Below are positions 1,137 to 31,813 of a DNA stretch of 64,000 nt, piece by piece. The translations under genes and the position numbers were made by a program. The stretch's first letter is position 1, and each line of letters opens with the position of its first letter. The notes under the pieces were generated by a model. The model saw nothing but the letters and a program-made list of their open reading frames with translations. It was not told the origin of the DNA and did not search any database. The stretch lies in contig CAWIPS010000010.1 in the NCBI GenBank assembly GCA_963837995.1, positions 34,285-98,284 of the forward strand. Direction: 5' to 3'. Source of the DNA: an uncultured Actinomycetota bacterium. GTDB lineage: Bacteria; Actinomycetota; Actinomycetes; Propionibacteriales; Nocardioidaceae.

Positions 1137-2303
1137 GTGACGCTTGATCGCAGCGTCGTTACTCCGCGATCAGGAGTCATCTGGATCAGCGGGTTCTCAG
1201 GATCGGGCAAGACCACCGTTGCCCGCGAGGTAGAGAGTCTCCTTCGCCGTGGAGGCCAGCGAGTGATCCTTCTTGACGGCGACGATCTGCGGAGCATCTT
1301 CGCCGATCGGTGGGGATACGAGAGATCTGAGCGCGTCGAACTCGCCCGAGTCTACTTCCGACTCTGCAGCCACCTGGCCTCTCAGGGCTTCGTCGTAGTT
1401 ATCGCCGCCATCGCGATGTATGACGACGTTCGGGCCTGGGTACATACGAACGTTACTAACAGCACCGAGGTCTTTCTGGATGTTCCGCGTCAAGTCCGCT
1501 TGACGCGCGACGCGGGTACTAAGAAGGTCTACAGCTCCGGAGTTGACCTGGAAGCCATCTATGACCCTTCCGTGAGCCCCGACCTGCGCATAGAGAACTT
1601 CGGGGAGAAGTCGGCCGTCGATACGGCCAACCAGATTGTCGCGTTCTTCCTGGATCAGGATGCCACTGACGAGTCGGACCGGGGCAAGAGCGGCCACTGG
1701 AACACTTACTATGCCATCACAATCGGAGCATTGGACCCATCGCCGTTCGCCATTACCGCGGAGGAGCGAATGCCTGGCGCCTCCGTTGTTCTCGATGTGG
1801 GCTGCGGCAATGGTCGCGACACCTCCTACATCGACAACCGGGGTCACCGGGTCACCGGTCTCGACAGCTCAGCATCCGCCATCGCCCTATGCGAAAAGGT
1901 TCACGAGGCTTCCTCGGCCGACTTCGTCAGCGGGAGTGTGTCCGAATACGTCGACGCATGGACAGATCGGTTCGATGTTCTTTACAGCCGCTTTGTCCTT
2001 CATGCAATGACTGAGTCGGAGGAGCTGGGGCTTTGGCGAGACGCCCGCAAGATTCTCCGTCCGAGCGGGATTGTGATGGTGGAATGCCGGTCGATCAAGG
2101 ATCCTCTTGCACGACAAGGAGAAGTCCTGAGTCCTACTGAGCGAATCGCCGGCCACTACAGACGATTCATCGTCATCGGAGACCTGTGCCGCAGGCTCGA
2201 GGACCGAGGCTTTGTCATTGACTCGGCAACCGAGGCGAACGGTCTGGCCGTGCACGGCGATGAAGATCCTGTGGTCATCCGGGTATTCGCCCACAAGGGA
2301 TGA
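1137..2303 (+). CDS. Adenylyl-sulfate-kinase-like (CysC/PRK05541-type) domain fused to class I SAM-dependent methyltransferase
   Basis: N-domain IWISGFSGSGKTT (P-loop), LLDGDDLR, EVFLDVP...RD; C-domain VLDVGCGNGRD, GLDSS, YSRFVLHA. Start placed at GTG 1137 behind AAGGA rather than ORF-track 963. Confidence 0.85.
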   Translation: MTLDRSVVTPRSGVIWISGFSGSGKTTVAREVESLLRRGGQRVILLDGDDLRSIFADRWGYERSERVELARVYFRLCSHLASQGFVVVIAAIAMYDDVRAWVHTNVTNSTEVFLDVPRQVRLTRDAGTKKVYSSGVDLEAIYDPSVSPDLRIENFGEKSAVDTANQIVAFFLDQDATDESDRGKSGHWNTYYAITIGALDPSPFAITAEERMPGASVVLDVGCGNGRDTSYIDNRGHRVTGLDSSASAIALCEKVHEASSADFVSGSVSEYVDAWTDRFDVLYSRFVLHAMTESEELGLWRDARKILRPSGIVMVECRSIKDPLARQGEVLSPTERIAGHYRRFIVIGDLCRRLEDRGFVIDSATEANGLAVHGDEDPVVIRVFAHKG

Positions 2304-3463: not shown

Positions 3464-3605
3464 CCGCTGAAATGATGAATGCGTTTCCTTCCGCAAACCT
3501 TGGGTGAGGCACAGCACTGTCCTGATTGGTGCCTGCGCGGGTCGGGAGGTTCAACCCTGTCGCACGTCCTGGAGAGGCTTCACATGGCGGGACGAGGACG
3601 AGTTG

Positions 3606-6600: not shown

Positions 6601-6791
6601 TCCCCGACGTGCTGGCCGAGCGACTCCAGACAGTCCCGGACAGCCGAACCCCCGTTGAAGACTGGCACAATAACCGTTGTGGCCGGCGCGTCGACCAGTT
6701 GACGCATCATGCCCAGGTAGTCAACGCCCTCAGTCGCCGTGACCCCGGCGCACCGTTCGCTGTTGAAGGCGCGATATGGGCCCTCACTCAT
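3606..6791 (-). CDS. Three-domain glycosyltransferase (GT2 + GT4 + GT4-like)
   Basis: GT2: VIVPVFNG, VIVIDDAS, VLLNSDT, GYGEENDW; GT4: SIWPETYAHTVSEAWAMGVPVIATDLGA; third domain: VEMDDDL, FNLAKSDLKLLEYG. Confidence 0.9.
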   Translation of the reverse strand: MSEGPYRAFNSERCAGVTATEGVDYLGMMRQLVDAPATTVIVPVFNGGSAVRDCLESLGQHVGDWRVIVIDDASTDVTTQAVIRQCVEKFGFELVVHEKNLGYTATANHGVSIAGADDVVLLNSDTVVGPLCVERLRWVAYSSPRVASVTPTSDNAGAMSLPVPGRANEWAPQLSSAEISRQLSRDMRVWAQCVPTAHGFCVYLLRRALNQVGYFDEELFPQGYGEENDWSLRADALGYKNYYAPHVFVRHVRSQSFGSRSEGLIRSGRQAVDARWPHYTSRVRAWVGGAELASISQQARGAQQKLSTLRAVLPRRLYIVHRSVGGTPQTNVDLMESLTEEQESLVLESTKGYNISLGQFRDGKIHSIDSWEPETAYLPQDDWDDRYAEYLISVLIEWNVETVHIRHLIHTPTSVVATVCETLSVPFIYSTHDFHPVCPTLTLLDEKMNYCGGVCTPGQTNCTLTGPAALAFEQPLKNGWIRDWQSRMAGVLNAAERVVATTPSAAKTLLAAYPNVADKLDIIEHGRDLSGFELIRQRRADRLPGPLRVLAPAVWGPHKGTALLRQIAGLVGANVEWHVLGTAGESMVDFAVVHGEYLRLDLPAIARELDPDLVGIFSIWPETYAHTVSEAWAMGVPVIATDLGAPADRIRHHGGGITFPHDDPEQAAQTILELASAPSTISSATGAAPVDAVRSLRSMGNDYNRLYVRSKRRHDSVSVGVLDKAVGVAPPASADVRAYRRIRYGFASPFAHYERLDVRDYASGACRDVDVLLVIRDAIPDHLASPVLERVKKSETRLVVEMDDDLVTASAVERLLGQGYDRERLEAFRSVLGQADRVIVSTSALAAAVSSLDGPECDVVEIRNELDPRVWLSSVTPTTGPKLQKSTESRLLYMGSKTHGEDLALLDGLPAALSDRLAQRVVLEIVGVSSVDLPEGARRLVPSSAEYPAFVTWLRQNRGRWDGAVAPLAATTFNLAKSDLKLLEYGAMELRTVASPVGPYASPPPELATTADTIAEWVDRLEEVIVERREHGPATLSRDWVVANRMLTPDSVSLWHQTVLG

Positions 6792-7218
6792 TGGCGTCCC
6801 TGCGGGGCATCAATCTTCCACCGAACCTATCGGCGACATGCAGTGCAGCCCTGACGCTCTTGCGGCTCTCGAGCGCGACCTTCTCCTCCTCGAGGTGGCT
6901 CAACCTGTCGCGCAACCGTCTGACTCGAGCGCGCGCCAGACTGAGTTGGCCCTTTCGCTCAAGCGACCTACGCCCAGCAACTTGCATGCTGCGCCGCAAC
7001 CTGACCTGCTCACGCTGCAGACCTGCGACTCTCTCCCTCAGACTTCGGTTAGCGCGCTTGAGTCGGGCGATGTCACGAGCTAGTTCCGATATGCGAACAG
7101 CACGCTGAGCCGCCACGAGCCTGTACTCGCTGTCGAGCAGGGCCGACCGCTCGAGAATTGTTCGGATGCCCTCAAGTGTGTTTGCCAACTGTGGGCCAGG
7201 CGTTTCCCTCACGTCCAT
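6784..7218 (-). CDS. Small coiled-coil protein, translationally coupled to the three-domain GT
   Basis: 144 aa with heptad-like RISELARDIARLKRANRSLRERVAGLQREQVRLRR...LSHLEEEKVALES; its stop overlaps the GT start region. Confidence 0.55.
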   Translation of the reverse strand: MDVRETPGPQLANTLEGIRTILERSALLDSEYRLVAAQRAVRISELARDIARLKRANRSLRERVAGLQREQVRLRRSMQVAGRRSLERKGQLSLARARVRRLRDRLSHLEEEKVALESRKSVRAALHVADRFGGRLMPRRDANE

Positions 7219-7427
7219 GCATGTCAGTCTGCCACGCGTCGGGTTCCGATTTTCGTTGCGTCGACCTACCTACATCTCGGGCCGGACCACCAGAAGAGAC
7301 CTCCACGCCAAACAGCCGCCGCGGATATTGTCTGACCGGCCAGTTCCAGAGTCGAACTTGAACGAAAGACTGCTCTCGAACGGCGGGCGCTCCCTTGCGA
7401 GGTATGGAAGCTGTCGTTTTCCCAAGC

Positions 7428-10400
7428 TCAGAAGCTGGGTGCCGACCGGTGTCGCCGGAGCTCCAACGCAGTGTCAAGCAGTTGTATGGCCCGCCGCTCG
7501 AACGAGTGCTGCTGATGCACTCGACGAGCGACCCTGCGTCGCTCCTCGGCGGTGCCGAAGGTGTGGTCGAGCGGGTCGTCGCGGACGAGGCCGGCCAGCG
7601 ACGTCGCGTCGGTGGCCACCTGAACTGAACTGCCGAACATGCCCTCCAGACCCGCCACGTCGTCCGAGATCACCCGGGCGCCGCTGGCGACCGCGTCGAA
7701 GAGCCGGTTGGACAGGAAGCCCTCACGCCGCATGTCCTCCCAGTGGTCGTTGAGCACCACGCCTGCGGAGGCGTAGAGCGCCCCCAGCTCGCGGTTCGGG
7801 ACGAAGGTCGCCTTGATGAGGTGCCGGGGGATCAGGTCCTCCCAGTCCGACCCGTAGACCGACAGCGGAAGGCCGGAGGCGACCGAGTGCCTGACGATCT
7901 GCCGGTAGTGCTGTCGCGACCCACCGACGAAGACCACCGGCTCTCCGGCGTCGGTCCGGCCACGGTCCGGGTGGAACAGCTCGGGATCCGTCGCCTGCAG
8001 CAGCGGGTCGATCCGCAGCGACCAGTGCCGGGACATCTTCTCGGCCCAGGAGTGGCTCGCAGCGAACACCCGGTCGTAGCAGGCGGCCTCCCTCCGCGTC
8101 AGCAGCTCCGGATGGGAGATCACCCACGCCAGGTTGACCTGCCCGTAGGCCGGCTGGAACGCCTCGAGGCCGCGCAGCACCAGGACCACGTCGTCGTGGT
8201 GCCCCGAGTGCCGGTGGAAGTCCTCACGGTGGTCGACGACGACCTGCTGGTCGAGCCCGCGCAGCGCGTCCGCCAGGCTGCGCGCGAAGTGGGTGTCGCC
8301 CCAGAGCTCCCGTCGCTCCCCGGCCGGTGACGCGACCTTCAGGGCCCAGCGCAGCCGGGGCAGCGTTCTCGTGCACACTCACCCGGGCGCGGGACAACAC
8401 CGGCTGCGGTGCGCACAGCCGGCGTTCCACACCCTCGCTCGGCACGGTCGCATAGCCGTGCACGTCGAACCCACGACTGGCCCACAGCCGTCTGTCGTCG
8501 CGCGGGGAGCGAGCCTCCCACCGGTCCAGGAACAGCTCACGCTCCAGGGCGGGCACGGAGCCCGCCCCGCGTTCAGGGGTCTGTGCGGGCGGCGTCCGGC
8601 GACCCCCTCGTGAGCGGGCCGGTCGGCTCACCCGTGACTCCGGCGCCAGGACGAAGCGGCCGCGGCGCGTGTGCAGCAGCCGGAGGCAGAGGTCGACGTC
8701 CTCGAGGCCGCCCCGGAACAGCGGGTCGAACCCTTGCAGAGCCACCAGGTCGTCGTACCGCATCGCCGTCGCTGCCCGGCTCAGGGCCATCAGCGGTACG
8801 TCGTCCAGACCCGCCGCGTCGGCGGCAGGGAACCCCTGGAGGAACTCGTAGGGCAACCCGCCACAGCTGGGGAAGGCGAAGCCCGCACAGTCGATGGAGC
8901 CGCTGGCACCGGTCACCAGGGCCTGCGCTCCCAGCACGTCGGGGGACTCCAGTGCCCCGACCAGCGGATCCAGCCAGCGGGGCTGGACGCGCACGTCACC
9001 GGCGAGCCACACGACCACCGAGCCGTTCGCCTGCCGCAGGGCGAGGTTGCTGCTGAGCGCGGCGCCGACCGACGCGGGGATGTGGACGACGCGGACGTCG
9101 TCGAACCTGGCCTCCAGCGAGGACAGCACCACCGAGGTGAGGCTCTGCGACCCGTCGTCGACGACCAGGCACTCGCAGGACCGGCCTGCGGGCGCCCCGG
9201 CCGTGACCACCTGCCTGACGCAGGCCACCGCCTGGCGCCATCCCGCAGCGCTGACCACGACGGTGACCAGGTCCGTGCGCTGGTCACGACGCGACAGGGC
9301 GTCCCAGTCCACGGCGCACCGGTTGAACGCCACGTCGGCCCAGGTCGACACGCGGGCGTGGTCCAGCACGGACGGCTCGACCTCGGCGGCCAACGCCTCC
9401 ACGACCTCCTCGCGGCTCGTGCCCACCGCAGCCACCGACCGGACGGGGAACCGGGACGCCAGGCGGAGCACCAGGTCGGTCTCCCACGAGCCGGGCAGCT
9501 GCTCGTCGAAGCCGCCGACCGCCCAGAACGCGCTCCGGCGGACCACCAGGCGGGCCAGCTCGACGGTCACCGGGGACGCCGGCGGCCCCAGGGCCGCGGA
9601 TGCGGCGGCGTACACGTCGTGCGTGCCGGGCCGCACCACCCGCATCACGTCGGAGGCGGCGGGCGCGTCCTCCTCGGTGCAGACCGCCTGCAGCAGCCGG
9701 AGGCGTCCCGGGGCCCACACGTCCCCGGGGAGGGCCCAGGCGAGGAGGTCACCGGCGGCTCGCCGGGCGGCCCGGTTGAGACCCACCGACGGACGCTCGC
9801 CGGCGGTCCCGTCGTAGGACACGACCACCAGTGCCGCCTCCGGGAACCACCGCTCGAGCTCTCGCCTCAGCTCCACGCCGCGACGGGTCCCGTCGGCGAC
9901 GACGACGACCTCGCGGGCTGCCTGCTCCTGGTCGAGGACCGAGCGCACGGTGCGCTCGAGGGCCCTCGGGTCGGCTCCGGCGGGCACCACCACGGTGACC
10001 AGCGGCTCGCCCGGCCCGGGAGCCGATGACCCCGGAGCCGGCTCCGGCTGCGGTGGGTGCCTGGTCCGGGACCTGGGGACCCGGCTCCTGCGCTCCAGCC
10101 ACTCGCGGTGCCGGGCGGCCACCCAGTCGACCAGCCCCCGGGGCTCGCCCTCGTGCGGCTGGTACCAGTCGTTCGGCGCGAGCCGCTGGCGGGCCCCGAC
10201 CTCCAGGTAGTGGCCCAGCGGCCCGAGGGGATGGGCGGCGGCGGCCGGGCTCGCCGCCCGGTAGGCCTTGAGGTCGAACAGCGGGTGGGTGGCCACGTCG
10301 TAGCGCTGCTGCCGGATGTAGGTGGCCAGGGGGTTGCCGCCCTCGCCCAGTGAGGGGCAGGCGGCGACGACGTGCTCGGTGGCGAACAGCGGGTGCGGGT

Positions 10401-14944: not shown

Positions 14945-16360
14945 ATGCCCCGAACCCGTGCCGCCCTGGTCCTCGCGCTGACGACCCTGCTGGTGGCCGG
15001 CATCTGCGCTGTGACCACCTCGCCCTCGCAGGCGACGGTCCGGACGAGGGCCTCGTTCCACCTCTCCTCGCAGCATCCCGTCGCCCGTGAGTTCTTCACG
15101 GCGTCCGGACGCGTGTCCACGCGCTTCCGGCGTCCGGTCCTGGTGCGGGCGCTGATCGGACGCAGCTGGCGGGTGGTCCGGCGCGCGAAGACCTCCCCCC
15201 GCGGGGTCTACCGGGTCACCCGGCTCGCGACCACGACTCGTCGCAGGTACTCCGTGATGGTGCCCGCGGTGCGCCGGTCCGGCCGGATCTTCACCGGGGT
15301 CGTCACCGGCGCCCGGATCGTGTCCCCCGTCCGACAGTCCGCCTCAATGGACGTGCTCCCCCCGATCGCCCAGCGCGGCTCGGCTGCCGCGGACTCATCC
15401 TCGGCGGAGAACTCGGTGGTCGCCCGGTTCTCGCCCGCTCGTCCGGGGCGTCCCGTCACGTTCCGCGAACGGAAGCCCGGCGGCCGCTCGGTGGTCCTCG
15501 GACGTGCCACCCGCCAGGGAGCCGACGGCACCGCCTACTTCTTCGGGGCTGCCGGGACCCGCGTGTTCCAGGCGACCACGGCGTCGCGCTCCGGCGCCCC
15601 GGCGGTGACCACCGGCGTCGCCGGCAGCACCTGGGTCCCCACGTTCGACGACGACTTCTCCGGCACGACCCTGGATCCGGCCAAGTGGACCTATCGCACC
15701 GGCCGGACGTCGTCACGCACCCACTCGACCAACGACAAGCGCTCGGTGTCGATGGGGTCCGGGACGCTGCGGTTGCAGGTCAGGCTCGACCCGTCGGCGC
15801 CCAACACCACCGCAGCCAACACCAGGTACCTCAACGGCCAGATCGGCACGCTCGGCACGTACGACTTCACCTACGGTGTCGCAGCGGCCCGGGTCAGGTT
15901 CTCCCCCGTCCGCGGTCAGCACGGGTCGTTCTGGCTGCAGTCCCCGACCTATGGCCGCGTCCCCGGCAACCCGGCAACCAGCGGCACGGAGATCGACGTC
16001 GCCGAGTTCTTCGGCAGTGGCTACCCGCAGGGCGGCTTGGCCAACTACGTCTACTACGCGGATCGGACCGGTCACAACGTCAAGATCGGTGGCGTGTGGC
16101 CACGAGCCGCCACGCTGGCCCCACGAGGAGACACCTGGTGGAACAGCTTTCATGTGTTCTCGGTGAAGTGGGGTCCGCGGGGCTATACCTTCTACGTCGA
16201 CGGACGCGTGCTGTACGCCACCACCCAGGCCGTCTCCAGGACCAAGCAGTACCTCATTCTCAGCCTGCTCACCTCTGACTGGGAGCTGCCGGACCTCCGA
16301 CGAGCCAGCCTGCCGACGTCGATGTCCGTGGACTGGGCGAGGGTGTGGCAAGCCGGATAG
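14945..16360 (+). CDS. Secreted glycoside hydrolase family 16 protein
   Basis: Signal peptide MPRTRAALVLALTTLLVAGICAV; TFDDDFSGTTLDPAKW, YGVAAARVRF, catalytic GTEIDVAE (ExDxxE), SFHVFSVKW, MSVDWARVW. Confidence 0.85.
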   Translation: MPRTRAALVLALTTLLVAGICAVTTSPSQATVRTRASFHLSSQHPVAREFFTASGRVSTRFRRPVLVRALIGRSWRVVRRAKTSPRGVYRVTRLATTTRRRYSVMVPAVRRSGRIFTGVVTGARIVSPVRQSASMDVLPPIAQRGSAAADSSSAENSVVARFSPARPGRPVTFRERKPGGRSVVLGRATRQGADGTAYFFGAAGTRVFQATTASRSGAPAVTTGVAGSTWVPTFDDDFSGTTLDPAKWTYRTGRTSSRTHSTNDKRSVSMGSGTLRLQVRLDPSAPNTTAANTRYLNGQIGTLGTYDFTYGVAAARVRFSPVRGQHGSFWLQSPTYGRVPGNPATSGTEIDVAEFFGSGYPQGGLANYVYYADRTGHNVKIGGVWPRAATLAPRGDTWWNSFHVFSVKWGPRGYTFYVDGRVLYATTQAVSRTKQYLILSLLTSDWELPDLRRASLPTSMSVDWARVWQAG

Positions 16361-16370: not shown

Positions 16371-18356
16371 GTGACCGCACCGACCGGCCGGTTGGCCGAG
16401 CTGCTCGACGGGGTCGATCGGCTCCTCGTCGTCCGCGGCCCCTCCGTCACCCGCACGGACATCCAGGGGATCTGTGACCGCCCGGAGCTCGATCTGGGGC
16501 TGACCGAGGTGGGGAGGCCCGACTGGGTGCCGGACGAGGCGCTGGACGGGGTGCTGCTGGTGGTGCGCGACCGGATGGAGCTGCGGCAGGTGGTCGGAGC
16601 CTGCCAGGGGCTGCCCGGCAGCCCACGGCTGGGGTGCGTCCTGCTCGACAGCGACCGGCCGCCCCTCACCTCCGGACGGCCACGTTGGCCCGCGGTGCTG
16701 GCGATGGTGGCCGGGTCCTCGCCCGTCTGCTTCACCTTCCTCGAGCTGGCCGGACCCCTCCTGATGGGGGAGCTCACCGCGGACCTCGCCCGGCGGTCCA
16801 CCCCGAGGCACCTGATGTCGCCCGGCTGGCCGGTGCTGGCCCTGGACCGCGAGGCACCGGAGCTGTGGACTCCCGGTGACCCGTTGTCGGTGGTCGGCCG
16901 ATCCGAGGAGATCCTCGACCTGTCCGGCGACTACCCGGCGGACGTGGTGGTGGGCACCCGGTCCGGCGGCGCCCGTGGTGCGAGCCAGGACCGGTCCGCG
17001 CAGGAACATCACGTTCTGGGGTCCCTGTCCCGCACCCTGTTCCTGGCTCCCCCGCTGACCTGGTCGGACTACCACGAGCTGGGCGCCGAGCGCAGCGACC
17101 GGCAGCTCGCCGCCGAGCAGGGGCTCGCGCTGGGCGGCGTCGACTCGCAGCTGGTCAACCCCCAGGGCTTCGTACGCCGCGCCGCCGGGCCGGTCCGCGT
17201 GCTGACCGCCGTACCGGAGGCTCCACATCTGTGCCGGCTGGACACCGATGAGGGCCCGGTCCTGGTGGACACCCGGCGAGGGCCCGGGGAACGCGACCTG
17301 GCGCGGCTGCGGACGCTGCGGGGGGTGCACGTGGACTGGCAGGGGGCGACCGGACCCCGCGACTACGCCCGGCTCGTGGTCGCGCTGGCGATGGCCGGGG
17401 TGCCGCTGACCAGCGACCCCGCCCCGACCTGGGCCCGGGCCCAGCTGCACCCGGACCTGCTGGCGGCGACAGCGGGCGCAAGCGACCTCGACGACCCCAT
17501 GGCTCGAGAGGTCCGCAGCATCCGTGCCCGGCGCGTGGCGCTGGCCCGGCACAGCTCCGATGCCTGGCGGCGCCGGGTGGCCGAGGCGACCGGCGCGGCG
17601 GCCCCGCCGACTCCGCGGGTCAGTGTCCTGCTGCCCACGCGCCGCCCCGACCTCCTCGCGTTCGCGCTGCGCCAGGTCACCCGACAGCGCGACGTGAAGC
17701 TGGAGCTGGTGCTGGCCACGCACGGCCACGACCCCGACCAGCGCCTCCTCGACGAGGTTCGCGAGAGCGCCTCGCTGCCCGTCACTGCGGTGAGCGCGCC
17801 GGCCGAGGCGCCGTTCGGATCCCTGCTCAACGTGGCGGCCGGAGCCGCGACCGGTGACCTGTTGCTGAAGATGGACGACGACGACTGGTACGGCCCGGAC
17901 TTCGTGGGCGACCTGCTCCTGGCCCGCCAGTACAGTGGCGCCGACGTCGTCGGCACCCCGCCGGAGTTCATGTACGTCGAGGCGCTGAACGTGACGGTGC
18001 GCCGCAAGGACGCGACCGAGTCGTTCCGCCCGGTGGTGGCCGGCGGCACCATGCTGATCTCTCGGGAATGCTTCACCGCGGTAGGGGGGTTCCGGCGGAT
18101 GCGCCGCTACGTCGACGCGGGTCTCCTCCAGGGCGTCCTGGCGGCCGGCGGGTCCGTCTACCGGACGCACGGTCACGGCTACCTGCTGCGCCGAGGGGAC
18201 CGGGGCACACCTGGGACCCGGGGCTCGGCTACTTCGTGAGCCGCTCGCGGACCGCGGAGCAGTGGCGAGGCTTCCGGCCCAGCGTGCTCCTCGATGCCGA
18301 CGACGCCGACCGTCCGGCGTCCCCCGAGCCGCGCCCGCGAGAGGTCCCCCAGATGA
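16371..18356 (+). CDS. GT2 family glycosyltransferase, frameshift at ~18203
   Basis: VSVLLPTRRP, LLKMDDDDWYG; continues after a missing G in a G-run as GHTWDPGLGYF...; probable ATGA junction at 18353-18356. Confidence 0.7.
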
Positions 18357-20070
18357 CCGCCGGGGCCTTCCTGCGGCGCACGGACCAGCCCGCGCGTGCC
18401 GGGCAACGACTGGCCCTCGCTGCGGCCCGACCCGCTCGGTGAGCTGGCGCCCACCCGGACGGTCACGTGGTGGTCCCTGCCTACCAGGCGTGGCGGACCC
18501 TGCCTTACACGCTGGCGGCACTGGCCCACCAGACCTACCCCGCGGAGCTGACCGAGGTGGTCATCGTCGACGACGGCAGCGACCCACCGCTGACGCTGCC
18601 CCGCGTGCGCCCGGCGCACACCAGGATCGTGACGACCGCCGGTCCTGGGGACGTGCGCATGCCTGCCACGTGGGGCCTGCGCGGCCGCGGGCGACGTGCT
18701 GCACTGGCTGGACGCGGACATGCTTCCGCATCGCGACGAGATCGAGGCGCAGATGCGCTGGCACCACCTGCTCGGACTACGCCGTCGTGCTCGGCACCAA
18801 GACGTTCGTCGACGTCGACCGACGGCCTGCCTGGCCTCGAGGACGTCGCCGGAGGCGGTGCGCGAGGGCCGGGCCGCCGAGCTGTTCGCGGGCCGGTGGA
18901 CCGCGCCGCACGAGTGGGTCGAGGAGCACCTCGAGCGCACCCACGGGCTCACCGCCAACCCGACCACGAGCTATCTCGTCCACGTCGGCGCGAGCGCATC
19001 CGTCGGCCGCGATCTCTACCTGGACTCCGGAGGGATGGACCCGGCGCTCAAGGCGGGCGAGGACATCGAGCTCGGCTACCGGCTCGCCCAGCAGGGCGCG
19101 GTCTGTTCGTGCCCGGACCGCGAGGCCCGGTCCTGGCACCTGGGCCGGTCGACGCTGATGGGGTGACCAGGAGGCAGTCAACGCCTACAACCGGCCCTTC
19201 GTCACCGACCGGGTGCCCGACCTGCGGCACTGGCGGACCAAGGGTCGCTCCTACACCGTCCCGTGGGTCGAGGTGGTGGTCGACGCGACCGACCACACCT
19301 TCGAGGAGGTCCGGCACTCCGTCACCGGCGTCCTGACCGGCAGCTCCCAGCGATGTCCGGGCCGTCGTCGTCGGTCCCTGGTCGCGGCTGACGGACGGAC
19401 GCCGGCCCCGCTGCTGGGGACCCGGACCTGAACCTGCGGATGGTCCGCGCGGAGCTGGTCGGCGACCCCCGCGTCCGGTTCGTCGAGGAGCTGCCCCGCA
19501 CGGCGTTCCCGGCGACGTTCCGGCTGCTTCTGCCGGCCGGCTGGGCACCGGGCCCGACACCCTCCGCCGGCTGGCCCGCGAGATGACCCACCGGGACCGT
19601 GGGCTGGTCTCGCTGGCACTGCCGGACGGCCGGGTGGCGCGTCTGGAGCGGACCTCCGCGTTCAACCGGGCGGCCCGCGTCGCAGCCAGCCGACCCGACG
19701 GCACCACGAGGATGGGCTCGACGAGGTGGTCGACCAGGTGTCGAGGGCCTGGTGGTTCGACGGCGCCGAGGAGGGGTTCCACCACCTCGCCGACGCGACG
19801 GCGCCGTCGGCTGGGGCCGCCTCAGCAGCCGGCCCGGCCACCTCGGCTCCGGCCACCGGGCCCGGCCACCCGCGGCCCCGGCGGAGGTCCGCAGCCAGGA
19901 GACGGAGGGCGGCCGCGGCCGCCCGGACCGGGGCGGCGCGGCGCTCGGACCTGCCCGCCACAGACGCCCCCGCGGACCCCGGTGCACCCGCCGACGCCGC
20001 GGAGCGCGGACCCGCCCGCAGGCTGCTCGGGCGGGCGGTCCGCCGCCGGCAGCAGCCCCCCGCTCGATGA
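18353..20070 (+). CDS. GT2 family glycosyltransferase, multiply frameshifted
   Basis: Fragments [55 protein letters not shown] in successive frames; ends ...QQPPAR-TGA overlapping the nuoD-like ATG. Confidence 0.65.
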
Positions 20071-21224
20071 GCGGGCTCACCCGGTCGACCGTCGGGGTGG
20101 GGGCCGCGGCCGGCGTGACCAGCCACGACCTGGTCCTCGACATGGGCCCCCACCACCCCTCCACGCACGGCATGCTGCGGCTGCGGCTGACGCTCGAGGG
20201 GGAGCACATCGTGGGCTGCGAGCCGGAGGTGGGGTTCCTGCACCGGGGGGTCGAGAAGCTCTTCGAGGTGCGGGACTACCGGCAGATCATCATGCTCGCC
20301 AACCGGCACGACTGGCTCTCGGCGTTCTCCTCCGAGCTGGGGGTCGTGCTCGCGGTGGAGCGGATGCTCGGCCTGGAGGTCCCGCAGCGGGCCACCTGGA
20401 CGCGCACCCTGCTCGCCGAGCTGAACAGGGTGCTGAGCCACCTGATGTTCCTCGGCGCCTGCCCCGTGGAGCCGGCGCCGTCGCCGATGCCGACGTTCCG
20501 CGAGCGGGAGGCGGTCCAGGCGGTGATGGAGGAGCTGTCCGGTGGCCGGATGCACTACATGTTCAACCGGGTCGGCGGCCTCCGGGAGGACCTCCCTGCG
20601 GGGTGGCCGGCCCGGGTCGCCCGGGTGGTGGCCCAGGTCCGCGCATCGCTCCCCCGCGTCGAGGAGGCGGTCCTCGGCAGGCCGGGCTTCGACTCCGCCA
20701 CCCGTGGCATCGGGGTGCTGGACCCCGCGCTGGTCGACGCGTACGGCGTCAGCGGCCCCCTCGCGCGGGCCTCCGGCGTCGACGTCGACCTGCGCCGCGA
20801 CGAGCCCTACCTCGCCTACGCCGACCTGCTCCGCGACGGGGTCCTCGAGGTGCCGGTGCGCCACGAGGGCGACTGCGCCGCGAGGTTCCGGCTGCTGCTG
20901 GACCAGGTGGGAGCGTCCCTGACCCTCGCCGAGGCGTGCCTCGAGCGGCTCGGGTCCCTCGGGACGGGGCCGGTCAACGTGCGCCTCCCGAAGATCCTGC
21001 GGCCGCCGGAGGGCTCGACGTACGCCTGGACGGAGAGCCCGCTGGGCATCAACGGCTACTACCTGGTGTCCCGCGCGGAGAGGACGCCGTGGCGGATGAA
21101 GGTGCGCACCGCGTCCTTCAACAACGTGGCGGTGCTGCCCGCCGTGCTGGAGGGCTGCCGGGTCTCCGACCTGGCGGTCGTCCTGGGGTCGCTGTTCTTC
21201 GTGGTGGGCGACATCGACAAATGA
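20067..21224 (+). CDS. nuoD: Stand-alone NADH-quinone oxidoreductase subunit D-like protein (49 kDa subunit family)
   Basis: [65 protein letters not shown], terminal VVGDIDK; no CxxC Ni ligands. Confidence 0.9.
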
Positions 21225-21306: not shown

Positions 21307-22419
21307 ATGCCGCCCGACGCCGACCCCGATCCGGGACAGGTGCTGCTCGTCGTCGTGACCGGGTCCGGGCGCAGCGGCACGAGCACGGTGGCCGGCACCC
21401 TGAAGATGCTCGGCAGCTATGTCCCGCAGCCCGAGATCGCGCCGAACGAGGCGAACCCCCGCGGCTACTTCGAGCCCAAGTGGACCGTCGCGTTCCACAA
21501 GAAGGTGCTGGCCGAGGCGGGCGTGCGCACCCTGGACGGCCGGCCCGTCGCCCGCGAGCTGATGGAGCCGGTGACCGGTCGCGAGGACCTGCTCGCCGAG
21601 CTCCGCGACTGGTTCGCGACCCAGCTCCAGGCCCCCCAGGTGGTGGTCAAGGACCCCCGCATCGTCTGGCTCCGCGACATGTGGTCCACGGTGGCCGGCG
21701 ACCTCGGCGCCGGCACCCGGTGGCTGACCATGCTGCGGCATCCCGCGGAGGTGGTCGGCTCCCGCGACCGGCACTACCTCGCGGGTGCCGACGACGTGCG
21801 CCGGTTGGCCCGCGAGACCGCCAACCTCGCCGGCTGGGTGAACGTCGGGCTGGTCAACGAGCGGGCCTCCCGGGGCGACCGGCGCGTCTTCGTGCACTAC
21901 ACGGACATGATCAGCGACTGGCGCTCTGCGATGGGGGTGGTGGCCGACCGGCTCGGTCTGACCTACGACGTCGACCTCGCCGACGGGGCGCACCACCCGG
22001 TCGACGACTTCATCGACGTCAGCCTTCGCCGGGTGCAGGTGACGCTCGACGACCTCGATGTGCCGGCCAACCTGCGGGAGATCGCCGAGACCGTGTGGAG
22101 CGGGCTCGCGGCACTGGCCCGGGACCCGGACGACGCGGCGGCCATGCGCAGCCTCGACGGTGCCCGCGAGGACTACGACCAGCTCTTCCGGCACTCCGCG
22201 GCCCTCGTGCAGGACGCCACCGACTTCGCCGTGCTCGACACCAGGCGGCGGGTGCGGCGCAACGTCACCCGCAGCCTGACCAAGGAGCTCCAGGCCCAGC
22301 AGACCGAGCAGGCCCAGCAGGCCCAGCAGGACGAGCAGGGGGGGCCGGCAGCGACGGGTGCGCTGCTGCGCCGGGCCGCCGCCAAGGCCCGGCGCGTGCT
22401 GAGCGAGCGCCGCGGATGA
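21307..22419 (+). CDS. Sulfotransferase-family protein
   Basis: VVVTGSGRSGTSTV, NEANPRGYFE, VVKDPR, MLRHPAEVVGS, VFVHYTDMISDW. Confidence 0.75.
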   Translation: MPPDADPDPGQVLLVVVTGSGRSGTSTVAGTLKMLGSYVPQPEIAPNEANPRGYFEPKWTVAFHKKVLAEAGVRTLDGRPVARELMEPVTGREDLLAELRDWFATQLQAPQVVVKDPRIVWLRDMWSTVAGDLGAGTRWLTMLRHPAEVVGSRDRHYLAGADDVRRLARETANLAGWVNVGLVNERASRGDRRVFVHYTDMISDWRSAMGVVADRLGLTYDVDLADGAHHPVDDFIDVSLRRVQVTLDDLDVPANLREIAETVWSGLAALARDPDDAAAMRSLDGAREDYDQLFRHSAALVQDATDFAVLDTRRRVRRNVTRSLTKELQAQQTEQAQQAQQDEQGGPAATGALLRRAAAKARRVLSERRG

Positions 22420-25082
22420 CCCCAGCCGAGCTCGTGTCGGCTGCCCGCCGCAGGCTCGCCGTGGGGACGCGGCTGCGCGCCGGCGAGGCCCAGGTCCTCG
22501 CGGCGCGCTACGCCCGGTGGCGCACCCAGCCGGTGCAGCCGCGCACGGTGCTCTACGAGGCGTTCTCCGGCAACGGCATGCTCGACAACCCCGAGGCGAT
22601 CTTCCGGCACCTGCTGACCCAGCCGGACATGGCCGACCTCAGGCATGTGTGGGTGCTCGACGACCTGGAGGCGCACCCGGAGGTGCGGGCCGAGTTCGCG
22701 GAGCACCCGCGGGTGCGGTTCGTCCAGATCCGCTCGGCGGCCTACTTCAAGGCGCTGGCCACCTCGACGTACCTCGTGAACAACGCGACCTTCCCGCAGG
22801 AGTTCGCGAAACGACCCGAGCAGGTCTACCTCAACACCTGGCACGGCGTGCCCCTCAAGCACATGGGCTTCGACATGCCCGAGGGCGGCCCGTTGTCGCG
22901 CAACGTGCTCCGCAACTTCCTGAACGCCGACTACCTGCTCAGCGCGTGCCCCTTCATGACCCGCACGATGTACCGCGACGCCTACCGGCTGCAGGGCATC
23001 TTCCGGGGCGCCGTGGTCGAGGAGGGCCAGCCCCGCACCGACCGGCAGGTCCAGGCGGCGTCCCGTCCCGAGGACGCCCGGCGTCTGCTCGCCGAGCGAG
23101 GGGTCGACATCGGCGACCGCCGGGTGGTGCTGTTCGCACCCACGTGGCGGGGTGACTCGTTCACGGATCCGCACGTCAACGCGGCCCAGCTCGTGTCCAC
23201 GGTCCGCGAGCTGCAGAAGGGGCTCGGTGACGAGCACGTCGTGCTGCTCAAGGTCCACCAGGCCGTCTTCGAGAGGGCCCAGAAGCGCGTCGGCCAGCAC
23301 AGCTTCCTGGTCCCCAACAGCATCCCCACCAACGTGGTGCTGGCGGTCGCGGACGTGCTGGTGACCGACTACTCCAGCATCTTCTTCGACTTCGCCGGCA
23401 CCGGGCGCCCGATCGTGCACTTCGTGCCGGACCTGTCGGCCTACAGCCGGGGCCGCGGGCTCTACCTCGAGGAGGCCGAGCTGCCCGGGCCGTTGTGCGC
23501 CACGGTCGAGGAGACGCTCCAGGAGGTCCGCGCCGGACTGTCTGCCGGTACGTCGCAGCGGGTGCAGGCCTTCGCCGAGACCTACGCCCCCCGCGACGAC
23601 GGCTCGGTGTGCGCGCGGGTGGTGGACCTGGTGTTCCGGGGGCGTGAGGAGTCCCCCTCCACCGTGCACCGCGACTTCGGCACGGACAAGGAGACCCTGC
23701 TGGTCTACCTGGGCAGCATGAAGTCCCAGGGCATCACCAGCTCGGCGCTGAACATGCTGCGCAACCTCGACTTCGACCGCTACGACGTCACCGCGTTCTT
23801 CCCCTGGACCCGCGGGCGGGACCGCTACAAGAACATCCTGCTCGTCGACGACCGGGTGCGGATCGTCCCCCGGGCGACGCTGTTCATCGGGTCCCCGCGC
23901 CGGGTGCGGGAGGAGACCCGGAACCTGATGACCAACGGCCTCCCGGCCGCCCTCGACGAGCGGCACACGAGGTTCTGGGCCGACGAGTGGCAGCGGATGT
24001 TCGGCCACGCCCGCTTCGACCACCTCATCGACTTCAGCGGCTACGGCTGCTACACGCCGTTCCTCTACAGCGTGACCCCGGCGAGCACCAAGTCGATCTG
24101 GCTGCACAACGACATGCACGCCGACATGCAGAGGGAGACCATCGGGGAGAAGCACCTCGAGGACCGGCTGCGGGCCGTCTTCTCGACCTACCGCTACTTC
24201 GACCACCTGGTGTCGGTCTCACCGTCCCTGGACCGGGTGAACCGCGAGAAGCTGTCCGGCTACGCGCGTCCGGACCAGTTCACCTACGCCGCGAACACCA
24301 TCGACGGTGACCGGGTGCTGCGGATGGCCGGCTTCTCCCCCGAGGAGTCCCCCGACGACGCGCGCGCCTCGGGCAGCGTGCGCAGGGCGGTGTCGGCGTC
24401 GGCCTCGGAGCGCTCCGCCACCTTCGACACCGAGAACCTCGCCGCTGCGGTCACCAGCCTGCTCCAGCACTACCAGCCGATGCCGGTGATCCGGGAGATC
24501 CGGAGCCGGCTGCACTTCGTGCGGGCGGAGGTCGGTGACGACGAGGCGGTGTTCGTGACCGTGGGCAGGCTCTCGCCGGAGAAGAACCACGCACGGCTGG
24601 TCCGGGCGTTCGCGGAGGTCCACGAGGAGCAGCCGGCCACCAGGCTGGTCATCATCGGCGGCGGGAAGCTGGAGTTCGAGCTCGACGACCTGGTGCACAG
24701 CCTGGGGCTGGAGTCCGCGGTGACGCTGACCCGCCAGGTGGACAACCCCTACGCGATCATGGCCGAGTCGCACTGCTTCGTGCTCTCCAGCGACTACGAG
24801 GGCCAGCCCATGGTGATCCTGGAGGCCCGGGTGCTGGGGCTGCCGGTGGTCACCACGGCGTTCTCCTCGGTCGGCGACTCGGTCCCCGCCGGGGCCGGGC
24901 TCGTGGTCCCGCAGACCGTCGCGGGCGTCGCCGACGGGATGCGCCAGTTCCTGGCCGGCAAGGTGCCCTCCTCGACCCTGGACGCGCACGCCTACAACCG
25001 GGCTGCGATGGAGCAGTTCGACCGTGCCGTGCACGGTCTCTCACCAGAGCTCGAGCAGCCGGTCGACGGTCTGGGCGGCTGA
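22416..25082 (+). CDS. CDP-glycerol glycerophosphotransferase (TagF-like) fused to GT4 glycosyltransferase
   Basis: NTWHGVPLKHMG, FAPTWRG, VLVTDYSSIFFDF; C-term FVTVGRLSPEKNH, LSSDYEGQPMVILEA. Real start ATG 22416 (ATGA overlap), not ORF-track 21480. Confidence 0.9.
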   Translation: MTPAELVSAARRRLAVGTRLRAGEAQVLAARYARWRTQPVQPRTVLYEAFSGNGMLDNPEAIFRHLLTQPDMADLRHVWVLDDLEAHPEVRAEFAEHPRVRFVQIRSAAYFKALATSTYLVNNATFPQEFAKRPEQVYLNTWHGVPLKHMGFDMPEGGPLSRNVLRNFLNADYLLSACPFMTRTMYRDAYRLQGIFRGAVVEEGQPRTDRQVQAASRPEDARRLLAERGVDIGDRRVVLFAPTWRGDSFTDPHVNAAQLVSTVRELQKGLGDEHVVLLKVHQAVFERAQKRVGQHSFLVPNSIPTNVVLAVADVLVTDYSSIFFDFAGTGRPIVHFVPDLSAYSRGRGLYLEEAELPGPLCATVEETLQEVRAGLSAGTSQRVQAFAETYAPRDDGSVCARVVDLVFRGREESPSTVHRDFGTDKETLLVYLGSMKSQGITSSALNMLRNLDFDRYDVTAFFPWTRGRDRYKNILLVDDRVRIVPRATLFIGSPRRVREETRNLMTNGLPAALDERHTRFWADEWQRMFGHARFDHLIDFSGYGCYTPFLYSVTPASTKSIWLHNDMHADMQRETIGEKHLEDRLRAVFSTYRYFDHLVSVSPSLDRVNREKLSGYARPDQFTYAANTIDGDRVLRMAGFSPEESPDDARASGSVRRAVSASASERSATFDTENLAAAVTSLLQHYQPMPVIREIRSRLHFVRAEVGDDEAVFVTVGRLSPEKNHARLVRAFAEVHEEQPATRLVIIGGGKLEFELDDLVHSLGLESAVTLTRQVDNPYAIMAESHCFVLSSDYEGQPMVILEARVLGLPVVTTAFSSVGDSVPAGAGLVVPQTVAGVADGMRQFLAGKVPSSTLDAHAYNRAAMEQFDRAVHGLSPELEQPVDGLGG

Positions 25083-29743: not shown

Positions 29744-30322
29744 CTAGCGCTGGTCCTTGCTGACCCGACACGCACGTTCGAGAAGCAGCGAGCCGACCAC
29801 CAGCAGCACGCCGGCCACCCCGGCGAGCAGCGAGTGCGTCATCCGCTGACGTGCCAGCACACCCTCGGTCAGCCCCAGCCAGCTGATCGCATAGCCGAAG
29901 TAGCCCCCGGCGACCAGTGACCCGGCCAGCGCGCAGGACTTGGCGAGCACCAGCCGGTTCACCGCATGGTGCGGCGCGAGCCGCTGGTGGCGACGGTGGA
30001 GGAGCCGGTACGTCGACCAGGCGACCGAGCCCACCACGAGCGCGACGAACAGCAGCGCGAGGACGGGGAGCCAGCCCACGGTGGGCGCCGCCCCGGAGGT
30101 CGCGACGCTGACCGGCCGCACCAGCCAGCCCAGCACCAGGCCGACGAGCGCCGCACCGACCACCGTGCCGGGGGTGGTCGTCCCGAGCCGCCCCCGGCCC
30201 GGCCCACCATCCGGGTCACCGGACGGCCCGGTGGGCGAGCCGTCCGGGCCACCGGCCTCAGGTGGCTCCTCACGGTCCCGGCGGTCCGGGCGGTGCCGGT
30301 CCGGGTCGTGGGCCCCGGTCAC
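29744..30322 (-). CDS. DUF3180-like membrane protein
   Basis: HHAVNRLVLAKSCALAGSLVAGGYFG, LLLERACRV; usual position downstream of folK in actinobacteria. Confidence 0.75.
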   Translation of the reverse strand: MTGAHDPDRHRPDRRDREEPPEAGGPDGSPTGPSGDPDGGPGRGRLGTTTPGTVVGAALVGLVLGWLVRPVSVATSGAAPTVGWLPVLALLFVALVVGSVAWSTYRLLHRRHQRLAPHHAVNRLVLAKSCALAGSLVAGGYFGYAISWLGLTEGVLARQRMTHSLLAGVAGVLLVVGSLLLERACRVSKDQR

Positions 30323-30341
30323 GGACGGACCCCGCGCATCC

Positions 30342-30911
30342 TCATGTGAAGGTGAGGCTCAGGTCGTCGCGGAGGCTCACCGCCTGGTCCGACGTGCTCT
30401 CCAGCAGGTCCGCGACCGGCCCGACTCCGGGCAGGGCGGCCTCGGGGTCCAGGTCGTGCCACGGGGCGAGGACGAACGCCCGCTCGTGCGCCTTGGGATG
30501 GGGCAGGACCAGGTGGTCGTCGTCGGCGCGCCGGTCCCCGACGACGATGAGGTCCACGTCGAGGGTGCGTGGTGACCCGTGGTCGCTGGTGCGCTCACGC
30601 CCGTAGGCGTCCTCGATGGCGAGCGCACGGTCCAGCAGCGTCCGGGCGGCCAGCGTCGTGTCGAGGAGCACCACCGCGTTGAGGAACTCCTCGGAGCCGG
30701 CCGGCGCGTCGACCGGGTCGGTGGCATAGACCGGCGAGACGGCGGTCAGCCACACCTCGGGGGTGTCGGCGAGCGCGTCGATCGCGCCCTGCAGGTTGTT
30801 CAGCCGGTCGCCGAGGTTCGACCCGATGGACAGCACGCACCGGCGGATCGGGTGCATCTCCCCGGTCAGCGTGTCGGTGTCCACGATGTTCGGGTTGGGG
30901 GTCTCAGTCAT
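30342..30911 (-). CDS. folK: 2-amino-4-hydroxy-6-hydroxymethyldihydropteridine diphosphokinase
   Basis: LSIGSNLGDR, FLNAVV, PRTLDVDLI, LPHPKAHERAFVLAPW. Confidence 0.95.
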   Translation of the reverse strand: MTETPNPNIVDTDTLTGEMHPIRRCVLSIGSNLGDRLNNLQGAIDALADTPEVWLTAVSPVYATDPVDAPAGSEEFLNAVVLLDTTLAARTLLDRALAIEDAYGRERTSDHGSPRTLDVDLIVVGDRRADDDHLVLPHPKAHERAFVLAPWHDLDPEAALPGVGPVADLLESTSDQAVSLRDDLSLTFT

Positions 30912-31398
30912 GGTCGTCTCCGATGGTGTCTCCGGTGCGAGATCCGGTGCGGTGGCTGGGGTGGTGGCTGGGGTGGTGGCTGGGATGCTGGCTGGGGTGG
31001 GGGCTGGTGCGAGTGATCGTGAGGGTCACGTCGGTGAACGTCGCCCGGACGGGGGCCCCCGGCTTGTGCACGGTCACCTCTGCCCGGCGTACCCGAGGGT
31101 CCTCCAGGCAGATGTCGGCGACGCGCTGGGCCAGCGTCTCGATCAGGTCGACGGGGTCCGACTCGATCGCCTGCGTGACCTTGAGCCCGAGCGTTCCGTA
31201 ATCCACGGTGTCCTGCAAGTCGTCGGTGCGGGCGGCGACCCGGGTGTCGAGACCCAGCACGACGTCCACGCTGAACAGCTGGCCGTCGCGGCGCTCGGCG
31301 GCCAGCACCCCGTGGTGGCCGAACGCCTCGATCCCGGTGACGCTCAGCCGGTCGAGGACCTGCTCGGCCCCGGGGACCCCGGTGATGCCCTCACCCAC
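30904..31398 (-). CDS. folB: Dihydroneopterin aldolase with His/Pro-rich C-terminal extension
   Basis: GIEAFGHHGV...ERRDGQLFSVD, TVDYG, LIETLA, VTVHKPGAP; start uncertain. Confidence 0.93.
   Translation of the reverse strand: MGEGITGVPGAEQVLDRLSVTGIEAFGHHGVLAAERRDGQLFSVDVVLGLDTRVAARTDDLQDTVDYGTLGLKVTQAIESDPVDLIETLAQRVADICLEDPRVRRAEVTVHKPGAPVRATFTDVTLTITRTSPHPSQHPSHHPSHHPSHRTGSRTGDTIGDDHD
30951..30998. repeat. 12-bp tandem repeat (GGTGGCTGGGGT x4) in folB 3' end
   Basis: Units at 30951, 30963, 30975, 30987; encodes HPSQ/HPSH on the minus strand. Confidence 0.85.
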
Positions 31399-31813
31399 CG
31401 TCAGGACCCGACGTGAGGACCGGGGAGGCGTGGTGCAGCCAGAGCCGCCAGCCCTCCGGGGTGTCGACGAACACGTTGGTGGCGACCGCGCGGCCGCCGC
31501 CGAAGGCGTCCGGCCCGGTGCGGTCGTCACCGGTGAGCACGTTCTCGGTGCAGGTCACCGTCGCGGTGGTGCCGTGCACGGCGATCCCCACGTCGGTCAG
31601 GAAGAACTGGATGTAGGGGGTGTGCGCCATCACCAGGGCCCACGAGCGGCTGACCGCCCGGGCCCCGCGCACCGGCAGCGCACCCGGGTGCACGCACACG
31701 GTGCCCGGGTCGTCGAGCCACAGGTCCCGCATCGTGTCCAGGTCGGCGCTCTCGATGGCCTCGTAGAATGCGGTGTTGAGCGCCTCGACCTGCCGGTGCG
31801 CGGTGTCAGGCAC
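31391..31813 (-). CDS. NTF2/SnoaL-like protein
   Basis: NTAFYEAIESADLDTMRDLW, CVHPG, ATNVF, WRLWLHHASP; usual position between folP and folB. Confidence 0.85.
   Translation of the reverse strand: MPDTAHRQVEALNTAFYEAIESADLDTMRDLWLDDPGTVCVHPGALPVRGARAVSRSWALVMAHTPYIQFFLTDVGIAVHGTTATVTCTENVLTGDDRTGPDAFGGGRAVATNVFVDTPEGWRLWLHHASPVLTSGPDGG

Follow-up and report, generated by a model that had tools for sequence, protein, structure and literature searches.

A stand-alone NuoD2 with tryptophan at the quinone-ligating position and its association with a MidA-type methyltransferase and nuo2 genes in actinomycetes

Why does a gene for a relative of complex I subunit D stand among glycosyltransferase genes, with a tryptophan in place of the tyrosine that ligates the quinone? 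The question is raised by the stretch of 64,000 nucleotides analysed here, which we call the window (positions 34,285 to 98,284 of contig CAWIPS010000010.1 in assembly GCA_963837995.1, from an uncultured member of the Nocardioidaceae; the assembly is 98.4% complete and comprises 13 contigs, of which contigs 5, 8 and 10 are cited as C5, C8 and C10). An original prediction, made from the letters of the window, saw an orphan NuoD-like gene and proposed a repurposed 49-kDa-subunit fold of unknown function, possibly linked to envelope polymer synthesis. The gene is indeed alone, and tblastn searches with the nuo1 proteins of the genome and the nuo2 proteins of a relative find no other nuo gene in the 64 kb. 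The proposal of a repurposed fold is narrowed by the co-occurrence of the gene, nuoD2, with a MidA-type methyltransferase gene and nuo2 genes, and we favor the interpretation, with a probability of roughly 0.6, that NuoD2 is the D (49-kDa) subunit of Nuo2, a second complex-I-like enzyme without the NADH-oxidising module.

The gene and the motifs that bear on its assignment are as follows.

20067-21224, plus strand: nuoD2, a 385-residue coding sequence of the RHDW clade of the complex I 49-kDa/NuoD family (translation, third-codon-position GC content, PF00346, Nqo4 comparison)
20154-20171, plus strand: HPSTHG, the beta1-beta2 loop with H30 and H34, equivalent to His34 and His38 of Nqo4 (ungapped Nqo4 alignment)
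20241-20258, plus strand: HRGVEK, an HRGxE motif, whose R60 corresponds to the dimethylated Arg85 of bovine and human NDUFS2 and to R121 of Yarrowia (offset to 7qsd_D)
20304-20315, plus strand: RHDW, with Trp83 at the position of the quinone-ligating Tyr (Nqo4 Tyr87) (Nqo4 alignment, orthologue invariance)
20454-20498, plus strand: a variable loop of 15 residues, the counterpart of the Nqo4 loop containing Asp139 (here Glu135) (Nqo4 alignment, relatives)

The reading frame is uninterrupted over its 385 codons, and its third-codon-position GC content is 0.94-1.00 over most of its length, the clearest coding signal in the region, so that nuoD2 is clearly a real gene. The product matches PF00346 (Complex1_49kDa) with 190 bits against a cut-off of 24, its nearest solved structure is Nqo4 of Thermus thermophilus (2fug_4, E 1e-66), and the NdhH chain 6hum_H is second (E 2e-66). 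The top 50 Foldseek matches are all 49-kDa/NuoD/NdhH chains with template modelling scores of about 0.7; the AlphaFold model used for this search (predicted local distance difference test, pLDDT, 66.6, and below 50 around R60, W83 and residues 309-350) served for fold assignment only. NuoD2 is nevertheless an outlier in its family. The NCBIfam NuoD equivalog models all score below their cut-offs (TIGR01962, 312/459; NF004739, 317/360; NF008974, 320/522), and the FpoD model spans the protein from end to end with 244 bits against a cut-off of 600. A segment of about 20 residues (Nqo4 315-334) is absent, or 41 residues by comparison with the canonical NuoD of the same genome, such that NuoD2 is a short form with 13-16 residues where canonical NuoD has about 57. 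An exact-sequence look-up (P0001) returned no match.

The residue pattern is that of a complex I subunit with one striking substitution. The N-terminal alignment with Nqo4 is ungapped and pairs H34 with His38, R80 with Arg84 and W83 with Tyr87; the equivalents of His38, Arg84 and His169 are all retained, as is the C-terminal GDxD[RK] motif, and Nqo4 Asp139 is replaced by Glu135. Of the quinone-ligating pair, NuoD2 thus has the His and lacks the Tyr, which agrees with the earlier reading that HPSTHG is kept and RHDW stands in place of RxDY. The earlier observation that Cys ligands are missing also holds: the positions corresponding to the hydrogenase motifs RxCGxC and DPCxxC read GPHHPSTHG and VVGDIDK, and the score against the NiFe large-subunit family PF00374 is 18.8, under the cut-off of 25.8. 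By these sequence features NuoD2 does not qualify as a [NiFe]-hydrogenase large subunit.

The tryptophan is not a peculiarity of this genome. Close relatives of NuoD2 number in the thousands, and a search of 1.8 billion cluster representatives recovers a broad set of proteins of 370-400 residues with xRHDWxxx, HRG[AV]EK and GDxD[KR]; the window's protein has all of these features, including the short form. Identities range from 65 to 86% across actinomycete orders, with the nearest relatives at 78-86%, and the orthologues at 65-73% come from Nocardioidaceae metagenome-assembled genomes (MAGs), Kribbella, Aeromicrobium, Streptomyces, Actinomadura, Streptosporangium and others (Streptomyces alone, 65-67%; Streptomyces, Kribbella and Actinomadura together, 65-69%). 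All 82 orthologues share W83, R60, H30, H34, R80 and D82. In a phylogeny whose tips are representatives of 50%-identity clusters plus a few orthologues from related loci, the RHDW forms make up one monophyletic clade of 78 tips (Shimodaira-Hasegawa-like support 0.998), which includes the window's protein and stands apart from the DRxDY forms; this is the outcome of the check on stand-alone NuoD proteins that the original prediction had proposed. NuoD2 is, judged by its sequence, an old and strongly conserved actinobacterial paralogue of complex I subunit D, and because its Trp is invariant across an old clade we regard the Trp as functional.

Two further D-type proteins are encoded in the same genome. 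The canonical NuoD (C8:497828-499072) is 33% identical to NuoD2, has TRMDY at the quinone-ligating position, and carries about 41 extra residues, which include the segment SMEALIHHFK. The third (C8:459909-460940) is a Cys-less NuoC-D fusion, 27% identical to NuoD2, within an Ehr/Hyc-type cluster. This cluster (C8:453000-461000, plus strand) also encodes NuoB-like, antiporter-like and NuoH-like proteins; its NuoC-D fusion has the motif HRGVEK, and it lies 4 kb from the B2-C2-I2 genes described below.

The RHDW-clade gene is the one named nuoD2 in Streptomyces, where a second nuo set has been listed that consists of A2, B2 and H2-N2, with nuoD2 encoded apart from the operon (PMC8388888, PMC3765725). 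In the Streptomyces loci folB, folK and folE lie within about 10 kb of nuoD2, in line with the original mention of a stand-alone gene near the ftsH-fol region. In three families we find a nuo2 operon (loci L089, L090 and L091) with the order A2-B2-C2-H2-I2-(J2)-K2-L2-M2-N2, and there is no NuoD-like gene within these three loci; D is the sole core subunit missing. The operon does contain a NuoC-type gene (PF00329, 113 bits; L089:5576-7315, L090:6483-7007, L091:10452-10946), which is absent from the published lists. The NuoC-type protein of the Streptomyces-like nuo2 genome has a tail of about 330 residues with repeats rich in Pro, Ala and Asp.

The distribution of these genes was compared across 401 genomes of the class, with NuoD2 called at E <1e-100 and NuoI2 at E <1e-35. 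The gene that travels most closely with nuoD2 is one for a protein of PF02636, the MidA/NDUFAF7 family of methyltransferases: NuoD2 is found in 195 genomes, PF02636 in 206, both in 190 and neither in 177. NuoD2 occurs alone in five genomes and PF02636 alone in six, mostly incomplete ones, and PF02636 is present in six of 183 genomes without NuoD2. The patchy patterns of the two within families coincide genome by genome (10 of 22 in family f4, 5 of 22 in family f13, and 0 of 20 in the window's own family); that NuoD2 and MidA are so repeatedly present or absent together is an argument that they are functionally connected. NuoI2 follows the same pattern. It was called in 192 of the 401 genomes, in 178 of the 195 with NuoD2 and in eight of the 183 without, and all three proteins are found together in 175 genomes; genomes without NuoD2 almost always lack both PF02636 and NuoI2. 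Two of five apparent exceptions that we checked, with NuoD2 and no NuoI2, have an I2 just below the threshold. Likewise, a second NuoH scoring about 330 bits is present in eight of ten complete genomes with NuoD2 and in none of five complete genomes without it.

PF02636 is also the most conserved neighbor of nuoD2. It is found upstream of nuoD2 in the same orientation, without an intervening marker gene, in 29 loci, and in 19 of these its stop codon falls -13 to +116 nt from the nuoD2 start; in L048 and L075 the two genes have 4-nt (ATGA) overlaps. It is convergent and directly downstream of nuoD2 in eight loci, and in about 30 others only a pair of bPH_2 genes separates the two. In the genome studied here the PF02636 gene is just outside the window (C10:32304-33276), 21 kb from nuoD2, and is 70% identical to its orthologue in L005. 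The actinobacterial protein, of about 324 residues, scores 68 bits against PF02636 and matches the COG1565/MidA structure 4f3n (E 1e-10); NCBIfam has no models for the MidA-like or bPH_2 proteins.

A candidate substrate for such an enzyme is NuoD2 itself. In mitochondria NDUFAF7 is the enzyme that dimethylates the Arg of the HRGxE motif (Arg85) of NDUFS2, and this Arg is dimethylated in mammals, yeasts and Paracoccus Nqo4, though not in E. coli, while T. thermophilus has Thr (PMC3829151, PMC3750175, PMC8042128). This target Arg is present in NuoD2, and the PF02636 gene is both present in the genome and linked to a NuoD-type gene. When numbered by the bovine precursor chain 7qsd_D, in which residue 79 pairs with query residue 21, R60 falls on residue 118. 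This we take to be Arg85 of the mature bovine protein, assuming a presequence of 33 residues. The spacing of 23 residues from R60 to W83 equals that from Arg85 to Tyr108. The canonical NuoD of the genome has Thr at the R60 position (LHTGIEK). By analogy, R60 of NuoD2 is probably methylated by the MidA homologue.

From the family membership, invariant residues, synteny, co-occurrence and operon content that we observe, we infer that NuoD2 assembles with the Nuo2 subunits. Nuo2 and NuoD2 together would constitute an enzyme of the 11-subunit type with no NADH module. In this enzyme the acceptor pocket would be formed by NuoD2, placed on NuoB2 next to the terminal N2-type Fe-S cluster, and the MidA homologue would methylate R60 in the course of assembly, in the manner of NDUFAF7 acting on mitochondrial NDUFS2. 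Trp83 would remove the hydroxyl that ligates and protonates the quinone in canonical complex I; with Trp in place of this Tyr the acceptor site would have to differ, such that the NuoD2 pocket would have a different acceptor geometry or be closed.

The window's own genome departs from the full arrangement. Its nuo2 genes are three adjacent and intact ones, B2-C2-I2 (C8:465260-466616, minus strand), in which the N2 and NuoI Cys motifs are all intact, and no NuoH2 (of about 330 bits), nuo2-type membrane arm or full nuo2 operon was found in the genome. Two other genomes, G271 and G051, likewise retain only B2-C2-I2 of nuo2, side by side and with their Fe-S motifs undamaged (L092, L093), and G051 keeps a 44-residue remnant of H2. 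This state looks like either a stage in a series of stepwise losses or a Q module that dispenses with the membrane arm, and the Nuo2 enzyme of the window's genome would be at best a Q-module. A nuo-like membrane cluster is present elsewhere in the genome (C5:3000-10800, minus strand), with an A-like gene, a gene for a small protein at the B position, and then H-, K-, L-, M- and N-like genes. We considered this cluster as an obligatory membrane partner of NuoD2 and rejected it, its NuoH-like protein being found in only 30 of the 401 genomes, eight of them without NuoD2; the cluster is sporadic and occurs independently of NuoD2.

The loop that follows HLMFLG in NuoD2 corresponds to a loop on the wall of the complex I quinone cavity. 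The original description of it as shortened or divergent is accurate, as it is two residues shorter than its Nqo4 counterpart and divergent in sequence. The further suggestion of compensating frameshifts is ruled out, because an independent metagenome carries a nearly identical loop (P0003, with a NuoD2 that is 86% identical), and the loop is therefore real and not an artefact. In a comparison with nuoH2 content that covers only eight genomes, the loop reads GSYP[LI]E[LIV]GAITP[VI]FYAF and is conserved in all five that carry the complete nuo2 operon; loss of H2 goes with an altered loop, and the nearest relatives of the window have loops that are hypervariable in length as well as in sequence. 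This small sample hints at relaxed constraint on the loop in the window's subclade.

Several observations weigh against a plain D-subunit role in Nuo2. A standard NuoH2 or membrane arm is missing from the window's genome, G271 and G051, all of which have NuoD2 and MidA, and in G168 (100% complete) and G138 both occur without NuoI2, so that the pair persists longer than the other parts of Nuo2. Relatedness among the genomes means that the co-occurrence counts are not independent events and overstate independence. Confidence in the AlphaFold model is low (pLDDT <50) at the very residues of interest, R60, W83 and 309-350. In Yarrowia complex I, replacement of the Tyr is reported to have largely abolished quinone reductase activity. 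Finally, the binding of NuoD2 to Nuo2 and the methylation of R60 are predictions from sequence.

Some of these points would suit an autonomous two-protein module of NuoD2 and MidA outside Nuo2, for example a soluble methyl-Arg assembly helper, a decoy or a regulator for canonical complex I. The two are the most persistent unit (190 of 195 genomes) and often form a two-gene operon, they survive without the nuo2 membrane arm in the three genomes with B2-C2-I2 and without NuoI2 in G168 and G138, and the Q-cavity loop appears relaxed in the window's subclade; moreover, a canonical NuoD nearly always accompanies NuoD2, and the pair is missing from families that have no NuoD at all. However, such a module would not explain why the nuo2 operon misses exactly the D gene, why NuoI2 is present in 178 of the 195 NuoD2 genomes, or why the residues that face N2 and those of the loop are retained in NuoD2 as in a working subunit, and a role as methylation helper is not obvious when the canonical NuoD has no Arg to methylate. 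We regard this as possible and rather unlikely. A further idea is that, in lineages such as that of the window's genome, the intact B2-C2-I2, NuoD2 and MidA represent a new derivative of complex I and not a relic. They may act as a methyl-Arg-dependent Fe-S module that lacks a membrane arm and has a Trp-closed pocket, or be attached to a different membrane partner, with the canonical arm and the contig 5 cluster as candidates; this is a tentative idea that we think somewhat less probable still. The persistence of NuoD2 without its own membrane arm in some genomes, its almost constant co-occurrence with a canonical nuo operon, and the known swapping of subunits in cyanobacterial NDH-1 (PMC3765725) could also point to NuoD2 as a second isoform for canonical complex I, one that takes the place of NuoD in certain conditions and gives the enzyme a quinone site that is changed or blocked. 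At only 33% identity to the genome's own NuoD, without the segment of about 41 residues that includes SMEALIHHFK, and with a phyletic pattern that tracks B2, C2 and I2 and not Nuo1, it is an improbable substitute.

The reduction of nuo2 to B2-C2-I2, the divergent and shortened loop, and the loss of NuoD2, MidA and I2 from all 20 sampled sister lineages of the same family raise the prospect that nuoD2 is here a relic, en route to loss after the membrane arm disappeared. Against this, the frame is intact with third-codon-position GC content of about 1.0, identity to the nearest relatives is 78-86%, and B2, C2 and I2 are intact with their Cys motifs; the columns invariant across 26 orthologues also hold in the window's sequence, although this is so by construction as it was the reference for the alignment. 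We consider decay of the gene very improbable. Assignment of NuoD2 to Nuo2 as its D subunit is the interpretation that we prefer over all of these. The features of the glycosylation context are listed here.

3-871, minus strand: bPH_2 gene pair, the ancestral left neighbors (the small gene is complete and the large one runs off the window; tblastn, 70-74% identity to the L006 pair)
900-7400, no strand assigned: low-GC (about 60%) island of glycan-modifying genes (composition; Pfam matches to APS_kinase plus methyltransferase and to GT2 plus GT4)
14945-16360, plus strand: GH16-domain protein, the first gene of the co-oriented glyco cluster (PF00722; 56% identical to the L006 orthologue)
16371-18301, plus strand: GT2a, a GT2 glycosyltransferase, with a frame break near 18203
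18467-20070, plus strand: GT2b, a GT2 glycosyltransferase in three reading frames in the assembly, a lineage-specific neighbor (tblastn with the 528-residue L006 orthologue, frames 3, 2 and 1; frame plot)
20067-20070, plus strand: ATGA overlap of the GT2b stop and the nuoD2 start (sequence; recurs in the closest relative, L014)
21307-22419, plus strand: sulfotransferase-like gene downstream of nuoD2 (weak PF13469 match, 21.6 bits, under the cut-off of 27)
22416-25082, plus strand: TagF-type glycerophosphotransferase fused to a GT4 domain (PF04464, 278 bits; PF00534, 101 bits)
29744-31530, minus strand: DUF3180-folK-folB, the ancestral right flank (Pfam)

The window represents the conserved actinobacterial ftsH-folE-folB-folK-DUF3180 region, and the gene order, with transcription directions where assigned, is CoaX-PanC-DUF2520-MidA(+)-bPH2(-)-bPH2(-)-[insert]-NuoD2-[insert]-GNAT-DUF3180-FolK-FolB. 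The position is that typical of the RHDW clade, between pan/nad/coaX and fol/ftsH genes and on the side of the bPH_2 pair, and there is no nuo operon around it. About 19 kb of glycopolymer genes, including the 60% GC island, separate the bPH_2 pair from nuoD2, and 7 kb of sulfotransferase and TagF genes separate nuoD2 from GNAT-DUF3180-folK. The island, beside the bPH_2 pair, encodes a fusion of an APS-kinase-like domain with a methyltransferase, and a GT2 plus GT4 protein of 1061 residues. The 6.7-kb stretch at 900-7600 without third-codon-position GC signal was also considered as a ribosomal RNA operon and rejected, as it has no Rfam or ARAGORN match and corresponds to this low-GC coding island.

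When marker proteins were mapped onto 82 related loci, the recurrent neighbors of nuoD2 were PF02636 (71 loci), DUF2520 and PanC (58-61), the bPH_2 pair (46-48) and FolB/FolK (45-47). The bPH_2 pair is directly upstream of nuoD2 and divergent from it in the same 46-48 loci, and DUF3180-folK-folB lies 1-10 kb away in most. Glycosyltransferase, TagF or sulfotransferase genes adjoin nuoD2 in 12 of the 82 only, all of them Nocardioidaceae MAGs of one subclade. The idea of a 49-kDa fold that has been turned to envelope polymer synthesis together with the glycosyltransferases around it would draw on the ATGA overlap with GT2b here and in L014, on the recurrence of the order GH16-GT2-GT2-nuoD2-sulfotransferase-TagF in a few Nocardioidaceae MAGs (the window, L013 and L014), and on the presence of GT2a-GT2b-nuoD2 in L011 and L018 as well; sulfotransferase-like orthologues also follow nuoD2 in L013, L014 and L033. 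The ATGA coupling reported originally is thus present, and adjacency to glycosyltransferase genes is not strictly unique to this genome, recurring within the one subclade. But 70 of the 82 loci have no glycosyltransferase neighbor, the orthologues of Streptomyces, Kribbella and Actinomadura adjoin MidA and bPH_2 genes instead, the glyco genes are part of an insertion with a low-GC island in it, and the co-occurrence of NuoD2 is with MidA and nuo2. These counts speak against the envelope link that had been proposed, which we find hardly credible. The glyco genes are a local insertion around nuoD2, an old resident, and are not its partners; they were inserted on both sides of it, which gave rise to the overlap with the GT2 gene, and this coupling is a derived state common only to close relatives.

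Several genes of the assembly are split, including GT2a, GT2b, panC and the MidA-like gene (the latter two within C10:30361-33276) and a nuoM-like gene on contig 5 (C5:4275-5593). Because GT2a and GT2b are intact in L014, with the same ATGA overlap, and because the split panC is an essential gene, the frame breaks are probably indel errors, in which the assembly is probably rich. A thiamine pyrophosphate (TPP) riboswitch (RF00059, 61.7 bits) is located at 49889-49995 on the minus strand of the window, upstream of a minus-strand gene.

The gene was already annotated and named in Streptomyces, and among published work on nuoD2, nuo2 and bacterial NDUFAF7 we found gene lists, with no functional study and no link to MidA. 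What is new here is the three-way co-occurrence of NuoD2, MidA and NuoI2, the presence in nuo2 of a C gene such that only D is missing, the graded series from a full nuo2 through B2-C2-I2 and then NuoD2 and MidA only to nothing, and an insertion as the origin of the glycosylation context. Should NuoD2 prove to be a D subunit of Nuo2 that is methylated, NDUFAF7-dependent Arg methylation beside cluster N2, a step in the assembly of mitochondrial complex I whose purpose is still unclear (PMC8042128), could be modelled genetically in readily manipulated bacteria such as Streptomyces, and a second respiratory-type enzyme with a Trp-modified acceptor site would be widespread in actinomycetes. There are also consequences for annotation: RHDW genes are labelled 'NADH-quinone oxidoreductase subunit D' despite failing the equivalog cut-offs and lacking the quinone Tyr, and the glycosylation context seen here is not a suitable basis for inferring the function of nuoD2.

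Among known systems the closest is nuoD2/nuo2 of Streptomyces, with an orthologous gene in the same chromosomal region near fol and pan genes; the window's genome differs in keeping only B2-C2-I2 and in having nuoD2 inside a glycopolymer cluster. Mitochondrial NDUFS2-NDUFAF7 and Paracoccus Nqo4 share with it the combination of PF00346 and PF02636 and the invariant Arg of HRGxE, and the NuoD2 and MidA genes are both linked and co-inherited. In contrast to the mitochondrial pair, the presumed substrate is a Trp-bearing paralogue, the canonical subunit having Thr at the Arg position here, and the bacterial methyltransferase is shorter than NDUFAF7/MidA (about 324 residues) and only distantly similar (E 1e-10 to 4f3n). 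Canonical NuoD/Nqo4 (2fug/4hea chain 4) has the same fold, the equivalents of His38, Arg84 and His169, and GDxD[RK], whereas NuoD2 has Trp for Tyr87, is shorter, scores under the NCBIfam cut-offs and is encoded outside the nuo operon. The Cys-less large subunits of the Ehr/Hyc type belong to the same superfamily and likewise have no NiFe Cys; unlike NuoD2, which falls on the complex I side, they are NuoC-D fusions in an operon of their own. Finally, Nuo2 with NuoD2 would share with cyanobacterial and chloroplast NDH-1 (NdhH) and archaeal Fpo (FpoD) the 11 core types A, B, C, D and H-N and the lack of E, F and G, but would be distinguished from both by a D gene that is unlinked from its operon and linked instead to a methyltransferase gene, and by the Trp at its acceptor site.

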